From IMG/VR virus record IMGVR_UViG_3300014039_000003, positions 1-64,000 of that record: a DNA stretch of 64,000 nt. One strand, 5' to 3'. Below the pieces are notes generated by a model, which saw only the letters and a list, made by a program, of their open reading frames with translations, was not told where the DNA came from and ran no database searches. This document shows, one piece after another, positions 50,633-51,735 of this stretch (positions are counted from its first letter, which is position 1; every line of letters starts with the position of its first letter). Made by a program: the position numbers and the translations under genes. Source of the DNA: a virus.

Positions 50633-51676
50633 TTATTTATCTTTATCTTTGTCTATCTTGTGAACTACCACAGGACTCTCGTCGTCGTCAACACCAACGG
50701 CAATAGGTGATATCCATTTTAATATGAGCTTGCGAGTAGACGGCTCTTTCATAGAACCAGTCCAGAAATTGTGCCAATGCCCACGTCTGATATGAGGGCG
50801 GGGAGAAGCGTGAGTTCCGGTAGCTACCGAGAACTGTTTATGTTGCACTCGCTTGTATTGTCTGAACGACGCGCCAACACGAACACCAACATCCCACTTA
50901 CGAATCTCACCATACTTATCTTTTATGCGGTTTGGCGATCTATGGGTTATTGTTTTTTGTTCAGGGTTTTCTTCTATATCGGCATTTGACGCGCAGATAT
51001 AAAGGACGACCTGTAGCATCTTGCTCATAAACGAGACAAGAGTATCAGCAAGATCCATATCCAACATAAACTTCTGAGCCTTGTCGTATTGACCTGACTC
51101 ATAAAGATATTTATAGCCCTCTTGACGAGTATATTCAAGATTGTCATAAAGATTCTCTTGGTTCAGATGTATCGGAAACGCATACGGCATATTGTTCTTA
51201 TTAAGACACAAGAAGCGTAATTCTCTGTCTTGTGTGTCCGTATCATACTCCATATGCACAAAGGTTCCGATAACCTTATCGTCGCCAAAGTAAAGATTAT
51301 TGAACTGTATATAAAAACATTGATAGGGGAGGTGCGACAAGACTTCGCTCGGTATATCGAGACAATCTTCTTGCGCGAATAGCACCTCTTCCATCTCAGG
51401 GTCAAGGACAAACACTTCTTTGCTGAGTCTCCACGGTGCAAGAGCAGCGAGTGCAGCTCCAACACGCGCCACATCCGACTCATTCTTAAAGTCAGCTTCA
51501 CTCTCCACAACAGCCTTCGCCGCCGCTATAGGCACATAGCAATCACTATCCCAACGCGGCAGACCGCCCTGTCCGTTATGTGAATGAATATCAGACAGCA
51601 AGTCCCACGCTTTAGGACATAGCTCAGTTGCTTGTTTTAATAAGTCTAACGGCGGGTAGTCTTTGACCTTTCCCAT
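50633..51676 (-). CDS. Orphan 347-aa protein of unrecognised family with own promoter, inside the TMP-splitting island
   Basis: AGAGGTG RBS 7 nt upstream of ATG; no motifs recognised. Confidence 0.55.
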   Translation of the reverse strand: MGKVKDYPPLDLLKQATELCPKAWDLLSDIHSHNGQGGLPRWDSDCYVPIAAAKAVVESEADFKNESDVARVGAALAALAPWRLSKEVFVLDPEMEEVLFAQEDCLDIPSEVLSHLPYQCFYIQFNNLYFGDDKVIGTFVHMEYDTDTQDRELRFLCLNKNNMPYAFPIHLNQENLYDNLEYTRQEGYKYLYESGQYDKAQKFMLDMDLADTLVSFMSKMLQVVLYICASNADIEENPEQKTITHRSPNRIKDKYGEIRKWDVGVRVGASFRQYKRVQHKQFSVATGTHASPRPHIRRGHWHNFWTGSMKEPSTRKLILKWISPIAVGVDDDESPVVVHKIDKDKDK

Positions 51677-51707
51677 TGATTACACCTCTGCTATATTTCT
51701 TAGATAT

Positions 51708-51735
51708 ATTATAACAGAAGCTAAGATTTTTTCAA
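51708..51735 (-). promoter_or_regulatory. Promoter (minus strand) TTGAAA-16-TATAAT for the 347-aa gene
   Basis: rc of tttcaa 51730-35 and attata 51708-13. Confidence 0.55.

Follow-up and report, generated by a model that had tools for sequence, protein, structure and literature searches.

A putative AcrVA2/FinQ-family anti-defence effector heads an accessory island within a probable group I-like intron of a phage tape-measure gene

The DNA analysed here comprises 64,000 nucleotides (nt), positions 1 to 64,000 of IMG/VR virus record IMGVR_UViG_3300014039_000003, and is referred to as the window; it derives from an SPbeta-like lineage of gut phages. In the window the tape-measure gene is interrupted by a 4.2-kb island, the lead gene of which encodes a protein of 347 amino acids (aa). 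Our results indicate that this protein is probably an anti-defence effector of the AcrVA2/FinQ family, and that the island headed by its gene probably lies inside a group I-like intron of the tape-measure gene. All coordinates are window positions unless another source is named.

Family, fold and predicted role of the 347-aa protein

In PHROGs, the 347-aa protein belongs to phrog_6160 (E=1e-48), a group of unknown function. A search of a large protein database returned more than 200 homologues at E<=0.001, and PF26125 was found on all 120 that were listed; a 98%-identical homologue, P0001, carries a precomputed PF26125 assignment and is named 'AcrVA2-like'. With an exhaustive phmmer search, 3,991 representatives at 50% identity were recovered at E<=1e-3, and 2,552 at E<=1e-10. 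The only real phmmer match in the PDB was AcrVA2 (7ci1_A, E=1.2e-9), with residues 66-311 of the query aligned to residues 64-303 of the chain.

An AlphaFold2 model based on 37 homologues reached a predicted local distance difference test score (pLDDT) of 86.3 and a predicted template modelling score (pTM) of 0.83. Foldseek comparison of this model with the PDB gave only three chains, all of AcrVA2, with E-values from 5e-14 (7ci2_A) to 1e-12, a probability of 1.0, template modelling (TM) scores of 0.55-0.66 and approximately 345 aligned columns; the next match had E=0.13. The model shows the three-domain fold of AcrVA2. Residues W79, D89, H286, R288 and H291 of AcrVA2 align to W82, D92, H295, R297 and H300 of the 347-aa protein. 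In an alignment of the same number of members (37), W82 and H295 are invariant, and D92, R297 and H300 are at least 90% conserved; H295, R297 and H300 lie within the motif PRPHIRRGHWH.

The protein thus almost certainly belongs to the AcrVA2-like/FinQ family, of which it is an uncharacterised new member. A first-pass annotation of the window had presented it as an orphan without assignable motif, a description that does not survive the 3,991 family representatives, the named Pfam family, the solved homologue and the conserved H-x-R-x-x-H. The same annotation had called for a structure model combined with a fold search, and this check left AcrVA2 as the sole significant fold match. It had also named a structural or virion homologue as the result that would speak against its view of the gene as cargo. 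No structural or assembly homologue was found in PHROGs (where phrog_6160 is of unknown function) or by the fold search, and the cargo idea stands.

Residues 208-341 (134 aa) are 36% identical to finQ of more than 500 conjugative plasmids (E=1e-15). The first 200 residues do not align to FinQ, and the similarity does not extend over the full length of that protein; judged from these alignments, the 347-aa protein shares a FinQ domain and is not a FinQ orthologue. FinQ was described as a homologue sharing the C-terminal domain of AcrVA2 (doi 10.1101/2022.11.29.518452). A conserved C-terminal FinQ match together with a non-aligning N-terminal part is in keeping with a protein that combines a conserved effector domain with a variable one for recognition.

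AcrVA2 binds the nascent N-terminal peptide of Cas12a, recognising LSKT, and this leads to translation-dependent loss of cas12a mRNA, for which H286, R288 and H291 are required and to which W79 and D89 contribute (doi 10.1101/2022.11.29.518452). By analogy, recognition would fall to the variable N-terminal and middle domains of the 347-aa protein, which would attach to a particular peptide of a single target protein during its exit from the ribosome; loss of the target's mRNA would follow through the conserved C-terminal H-x-R-x-x-H domain. Synthesis of the target would be stopped and other genes left untouched. As target, an immune protein of the host is most likely, whether Cas12a or a different one, which would make the gene anti-defence cargo, and a host-type promoter of its own may make the gene active at an early stage of infection or in lysogens. 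On this analogy, the protein most likely silences a single host-defence or rival-element gene, selectively and coupled to translation, and we lean towards the specific co-translational mechanism. A role in host-immunity or inter-element conflict is very likely, anti-defence being roughly twice as probable as FinQ-like exclusion.

Several points weigh against this reading of the protein. Its identity to AcrVA2 in the Foldseek alignment is just 16-17%, and it had no match in NCBIfam, PADLOC or local Pfam, the last because that library version was without the PF26125 model. Members of the family are found widely on mobile elements, mostly where the host lacks Cas12a (doi 10.1101/2022.11.29.518452), and the mRNA decay machinery used by AcrVA2 is still unknown according to a 2026 review (PMC13131331). 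The host is on record only as 'bacterium' or 'uncultured Clostridium sp.', and therefore Cas12a is a possible target but not a favoured one.

A protein of the same family and mechanism may instead play a FinQ-like role, as an exclusion factor silencing a gene of a competing conjugative plasmid, phage or satellite. The match of the C-terminal domain to FinQ, a fertility inhibitor of F transfer, and the usual occurrence of the family without Cas12a agree with such a role, as does the presence of abortive-infection-type ToxN/AbiQ in sibling islands; yet the sole member studied mechanistically is an anti-CRISPR and the N-terminal two thirds of the protein are unlike FinQ, and we regard this role as rather unlikely. 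Much less probable is a defence effector protecting the lysogen, that is, a toxin or RNase aborting infection by other phages. Although abortive-infection systems occur among the cargo of sibling islands and the conserved His/Arg motif could be a nuclease-like site, no PADLOC defence model matches the protein and no partner antitoxin adjoins the gene, and expression of AcrVA2 altered only cas12a and two other transcripts with no toxicity-type phenotype (doi 10.1101/2022.11.29.518452). A role in the virion or in tail assembly, such as that of a tape-measure chaperone, is effectively refuted: it is suggested only by the position between two tape-measure parts, whereas 6 of 22 sibling phages lack the gene or have another in its place despite sharing the tail genes, homologues of the protein lie outside structural modules in other prophages, and AcrVA2 is its only match in fold. 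The earlier view of the gene as autonomous defence, exclusion or anti-defence cargo rather than a virion part is borne out by its family, by the lack of a structural homologue and by the hypervariable slot that it occupies.

The split tape-measure gene and a group I-like RNA element

The two parts of the tape-measure gene and the elements of the proposed intron are as follows. Element positions are counted along the minus strand from window 52094 (position 1), and helices are numbered P1 to P10 with joining segments J; bp denotes base pairs and ORF open reading frame.

52041..53726, minus: tape-measure exon 1, 562 codons, called separately as a 563-aa ORF (52035-53726)
52040..52041, minus: predicted 5′ splice site, past the U of ...AUU GCU (52041), at a phase-0 codon boundary
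51744..52040, minus: near-invariant core resembling a group I ribozyme, assigned to the 5′ end of the predicted intron, from the conservation profile and a constrained fold
52044-52025, minus: P1, of which the first four nucleotides (52044-52041) are exon
52037-52035, minus: stop codon UGA, within the P1 loop
51972-51966 with 51876-51870, minus: P3, 7 bp (element 123-129 with 219-225)
51913-51894, minus: P6
51885-51878 with 51846-51840, minus: P7, 7-8 bp (C210, bulged A211, and 212-217 with 249-255)
51868-51853, minus: P8, 6-7 bp, UACG loop (227-232 with 237-242)
51834-51814, minus: P9
51766-51744, minus: terminal core hairpin, GGGGAU loop
47845..47879, minus: 3′ hairpin, 14-bp stem and 7-nt loop with AUCCCC, followed by 5 nt and the terminal G
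47838..47839, minus: predicted 3′ splice site, terminal G at 47839, exon 2 opening with AUAUUCACUAC at 47838
43645..47838, minus: tape-measure exon 2, 1,397 codons

Joining of 52041 to 47838 yields an uninterrupted 1,959-aa ORF with no internal stop. The predicted sequence at the junction of the joined exons is ...AAGCGCAUUGCU followed directly by AUAUUCACUACC, and the predicted junction-spanning peptide of the joined tape-measure protein is IAIFTTSGAGNK. Exon 1 matches PF10145 and phrog_4211 (positions 555-953 of 2,625). The tape-measure protein of Lactococcus phage PMBT69, which is continuous, aligns across the junction in a single high-scoring segment pair, and related giant siphophages have one continuous tape-measure gene.

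Across the lineage, identity is 91-100% for exon 1 vs. 45-96% for the downstream part (L033-L070), which makes the island a junction at which proximal and distal tail modules have recombined. In three lineages with downstream proteins only 45-96% identical, the start of exon 2 is nonetheless invariant as G^AUAUUCACUAC (^ marks the splice site), and the longer junction sequence that they share is G^ATATTCACTAC; eleven junction nucleotides are invariant while the rest of the downstream protein diverges to 45%. The junction is followed by a conserved peptide, IFTT(S/K)G.G...L.IFG, that lacks a conserved start codon; in the window and in L047, L050 and L051, its reading frame is closed by a stop one or two codons 5′ of it. 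This peptide must therefore be joined to something upstream. The mechanically called downstream ORF (1,384 aa, 43645-47799) opens with a TTG at 47799, but an independent start there is unlikely, being neither preceded by a ribosome-binding site (RBS) nor conserved.

Inspection of the exon 1 end showed that UGCU^GC (51-56) pairs with GUGGCA (65-70) to form P1. The U54.G67 pair is present in all 17 distinct sequences, and G55.U66 is changed to G-C in two. Contiguous with P1, AAUGU (62-66) pairs with AUAUU, the first five nucleotides of exon 2, to form P10, the first pair of which is mismatched in two sequences. Only U54 yields both a P1 with a U.G pair and a contiguous P10; the other phase-0 U residues (24, 27, 30, 33, 39, 51 and 57) were checked by hand for guide pairing as alternative 5′ splice sites.

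The element stands out by its conservation. Window 51800-52099 is 96-100% identical to L002, vs. 79-95% in the adjacent coding DNA, and in an alignment of 21 contigs nucleotide invariance starts sharply at window 52094. A pseudoknot of P3 and P7 that encloses P8, in which P7 has a bulged A and, at the guanosine site, a G-C pair, arose in 9 of 2000 dinucleotide shuffles at the stringency used; a first, lenient version of this test was uninformative, as 254 of 300 shuffles passed it, and was replaced by the stricter one. The constrained fold has GAAA as J3/4, P6 stacked directly after P4′, and CA as J6/7. Of the 60 pairs scored, 49 never vary, 1 shows compensatory change and 9 show one-sided changes that preserve pairing, with 2 broken cells; the compensatory change, A-U to G-C, is in P9, and one substitution breaks a pair of P5. 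The 3′ hairpin is present in all three lineages with 12-14 bp, differing stem sequences, a 7-nt loop, exactly 5 nt and the terminal G. The AUCCCC in this loop could pair with the complementary GGGGAU in the loop of the last core hairpin, and in L001 the loop runs change length together, 5 G with 5 C.

Contact between the GGGGAU and AUCCCC loops could unite intron ends 1.2-5.3 kb apart, with splicing in cis or even in trans, and splicing would restore a tape-measure protein of 1,959 aa. Transcription of the cargo, with its internal promoters, terminators and convergent small RNA (sRNA), could gate production of the full-length tape measure. We infer the intron from the conserved RNA architecture and the joining of the exons. 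Splicing of the tape-measure RNA, in cis or in trans, appears probable. We favour, with less assurance, an atypical group I-like intron without a homing endonuclease (lost or never present), the interior of which serves as a platform for exchangeable defence and anti-defence genes.

A number of findings speak against an intron. With Rfam model RF00028, the whole window gave no match at the gathering threshold, a 4.7-kb region none at E<=5 and the element none at E<=10, while the T4 td intron, a positive control with a comparable ORF insertion, was detected with the same tool (42.5 bits, E=3e-9); judged by sequence, therefore, this is no typical group I intron. P7 (GAGCAC/GUGCUC) and J8/7 depart from the consensus and P4 is just 3 bp in the best fold. 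Most helices are invariant and covariation is thin, and the thresholds of the shuffle test for the core topology were chosen post hoc, when the structure had already been seen. Several terminator-like hairpins lie on the transcribed (late) strand inside the island, and no homing endonuclease was found there. No intron-less allele was recovered either: IMG/VR gave only the same 19 split contigs, and a large protein database only 563-aa or 206-aa proteins.

The alternative is that no splicing occurs, and that the phage makes two separate proteins of 563 aa and ~1,384-1,397 aa on either side of an intergenic 'moron' hotspot of the ordinary kind. In that case the invariant 300-nt element would be a regulatory or recombination element (leader, terminator) or a recently spread sequence. 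Gene callers do annotate two genes, the split is fixed in every relative found, and one lineage has an in-frame AUG two codons 5′ of exon 2; the RF00028 miss with a working td control and the internal terminators on the late strand point the same way. Against this, the downstream part has no conserved start codon or RBS and several lineages have in-frame stops directly before the IFTT peptide, and two separate proteins would have to be squared with the invariance of the eleven junction nucleotides, the P1/P10/terminal-G geometry in the correct reading phase, a core pseudoknot that is rare in shuffles and a conserved 3′ hairpin loop complementary to the core. We consider the absence of splicing somewhat unlikely and keep to the spliced, group I-like intron as the preferred reading.

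Further possibilities were considered. A group II intron was rejected: a GUGCG occurs near the end of the 563-aa ORF, but the region has no domain V, reverse transcriptase or Rfam group II match. A split intein was dismissed as neither protein end has intein-like sequence. Excision of the island as DNA has no support, since the island encodes no recombinase and its junctions lack direct repeats. A role of the 182-aa zinc-ribbon protein of the island as a homing endonuclease is not supported: its 76 homologues carry zinc-ribbon Pfam families only.

The 206-aa proteins, found in L074 and L075 (9001-9621), resemble the beginning of the downstream tape-measure part at ~90% identity. They adjoin bacterial ABC-transporter/NEAT genes on ~11-kb contigs, with nothing further called downstream; they yielded no second intron and look like truncated or remnant copies. 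In L002, a GIY-YIG/NUMOD3 homing-endonuclease-type gene (17424-18542) lies just downstream of the tape-measure gene; it is absent from the window.

Expression signals, the convergent RNA unit and the island cargo

The gene of the 347-aa protein and its signals, together with the convergent unit, are located as follows.

50633..51676, minus: AcrVA2-like (PF26125) gene, 347 aa, ATG start, from the ORF listing
51708..51735, minus: sigma-70-type promoter, −35 TTGAAA at 51735-51730, 16-nt spacer, −10 TATAAT at 51713-51708
51683..51689, minus: Shine-Dalgarno sequence AGAGGTG, 6 nt 5′ of the ATG, read from the sequence
50600..50623, plus: 10-bp G+C-rich hairpin abutting the stop codon of the 347-aa gene
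50403..50632, plus: candidate non-coding RNA unit, promoter 50403-50431, transcript ~50438-50632

The minus-strand ORF, its TTGAAA/TATAAT promoter with a 16-nt spacer and its AGAGGTG RBS are all present as first annotated. The promoter agrees with the consensus at 11 of 12 positions and is extended by a TGn; no other site in the region scores as high. Promoter-like sites are no commoner in the 5-kb region than in shuffles (14 vs. 11.1 +/- 3.4), and the case for this promoter is made by its score and by its retention upstream of the gene in most sibling loci. The −35 box is common to all island types and directly adjoins the conserved ribozyme-like element; divergence between the islands starts immediately past it.

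Placement of the gene in the tail module was confirmed by its neighbours, which carry PF10145 and the YomU, YomV, YomW and YonB families. The same tail genes occur on contigs of 280-630 kb, and the phage therefore occurs as a prophage. No DNA similarity to GenBank phages was detected at megablast or blastn sensitivity. Two earlier claims on the setting of the gene held only in part. The gene had been described as expressed independently of the structural operon, and it does have its own promoter; however, it sits in the 4.2-kb interruption of the tape-measure gene, and late transcription must therefore cross it, unless the tail genes and the second tape-measure part have a promoter of their own, for which only a weak 9/12 candidate was seen. 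Of the flanking terminator, the hairpin at 50600-50623 is present, but it has its T-run on the plus strand and no U-run on the minus strand. It therefore terminates the convergent unit, and for the acr transcript it is a mere hairpin.

The convergent sRNA candidate proposed in the first-pass annotation was upheld. It has its own promoter (50403-50431) with 11 of 12 consensus positions, and its ~195 nt fold better than shuffles (z = -2.55, 1/200). It is conserved in 10 sibling islands, some of which are without the 347-aa gene. Among the conserved copies there are no compensatory pairs, and no Rfam match was obtained. Positions 50448-50462 (plus) of the candidate, CCAACCGAUAGUAGU, are a same-sense 14/15 copy of ribozyme segment 51986-52000, CCAACCCAUAGUAGU. 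About 0.4 such matches are expected by chance, and the likeness is not kept in L045. It is probably a coincidence, although the copy could act as a decoy.

Apart from the lead gene, the following genes were located in the island of the window (HTH, helix-turn-helix).

47900-48448, plus: double zinc-ribbon protein, 182 aa
48581-48955, plus: 124-aa protein
49007-49288, minus: membrane protein, 93 aa
49307-49579, minus: 90-aa protein
49582-50019, plus: HTH regulator, 145 aa

Among 22 phages of the same lineage, the interval between the two tape-measure parts ranges from ~1.1 to 5.2 kb. The AcrVA2-like gene is first in 16 of these islands; in L041 and L045 the first slot holds a 283-aa gene of unknown function, which is fragmented in L037, and L042 and L044 have no first-slot gene. 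Other variable modules are ToxN/AbiQ, a PARP-like 197-aa protein, a 402-aa membrane protein, and an HTH gene with two small proteins. The type III toxin ToxN/AbiQ, identified by Pfam (4e-40) and as AbiQ by PADLOC, is present in L041 (island positions 1808-2521), L036, L038, L043, L050 and L051. Upstream of the L041 copy there are three 33-nt tandem repeats, probably an antitoxin RNA. The PARP-like ADP-ribosyltransferase-type protein occurs with an 89-aa upstream partner in L001 (13071-13910) and also in L040; its Pfam match (PF00644, E=3.5e-5) is below the cut-off, and it has a weak PADLOC match to PD-T4-9_A.

The 182-aa protein has zinc ribbons at both ends and lies at the 3′ island end in 21 of the 22 siblings, on the strand opposite to the late genes. 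The trio at 49007-50019, in which the HTH regulator (plus) is divergent from the 90-aa protein and the 93-aa membrane protein (minus), recurs in 12-16 sibling islands and could be a small regulatory or exclusion module. The G+C content of the island interior (47600-50600) is 0.34-0.42, vs. 0.44-0.50 in the flanking tape-measure DNA, and strand GC skew drops to about zero there. In unrelated Oscillospiraceae-type prophages (L003-L011), the AcrVA2-like gene is found in an accessory region at the extreme prophage end, where it adjoins host genes (e.g., dnaE) and is convergent with the endolysin/lysis cassette, often with small HTH genes following it.

Comparison with known systems and significance

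The closest relative of known function is AcrVA2, an anti-CRISPR of a Moraxella bovoculi prophage (7CI1/7CI2). The two proteins match over the full length of the fold (TM 0.58-0.66), are of similar size (347 aa here vs. 322 aa) and are both carried by prophages; the C-terminal RPHIRRGHWH motif, with the essential H/R/H, and the equivalents of W79 and D89 are kept here. Unlike AcrVA2, the protein described here comes from a gut Firmicute-type host rather than Moraxella, its sequence has diverged to the low identity given above, its gene has no AcrVA1 partner or aca gene adjoining, and it lies inside an island that splits the tape measure. FinQ, of IncI-type conjugative plasmids, is of the same family by virtue of the domain at residues 208-341, and its lowering of transcript levels of specific rival-element genes can be likened to what we propose for the 347-aa protein. 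It differs in its unaligned N-terminal and middle parts, and in being plasmid-borne in Enterobacteria and acting on F tra genes.

As in the td, nrdB and nrdD/sunY introns of T4, an essential phage gene is interrupted, with a ribozyme core to one side and a peripheral ORF with its own promoter; a U.G at the 5′ splice site, a terminal G, a P1/P10 guide and in-frame exon ligation are shared features as well, predicted in the present case. In contrast to the T4 introns, the cargo here has no homing endonuclease, extends over ~3.9 kb with six genes on both strands and an sRNA unit, and differs between siblings; the core is unrecognised by RF00028, the ends are apparently joined by a loop-loop contact, and no intron-less allele was found. 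Phage and satellite defence hotspots also have a fixed position between conserved flanks and mosaic cargo, represented here by an Acr-family gene, ToxN/AbiQ and an ADP-ribosyltransferase-like gene, but the flanks in our case are two halves of one structural gene plus an RNA element instead of separate core genes. A literature search gave nothing relevant on introns carrying anti-CRISPR or defence cargo.

The AcrVA2/FinQ family comprises ~4,000 clusters at 50% identity, and only one member has a known target. A well-conserved member that is abundant in gut phages, with its catalytic motif intact and its recognition domain divergent, offers a route to other targets of silencing triggered by nascent peptides. 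If the intron is real, multi-gene cargo for defence and anti-defence can be housed safely in a self-splicing intron of an essential structural gene. The split tape measure called in hundreds of contigs from gut phages would then be explained as well, and the known ribozymes would be joined by a variant missed by current covariance models.

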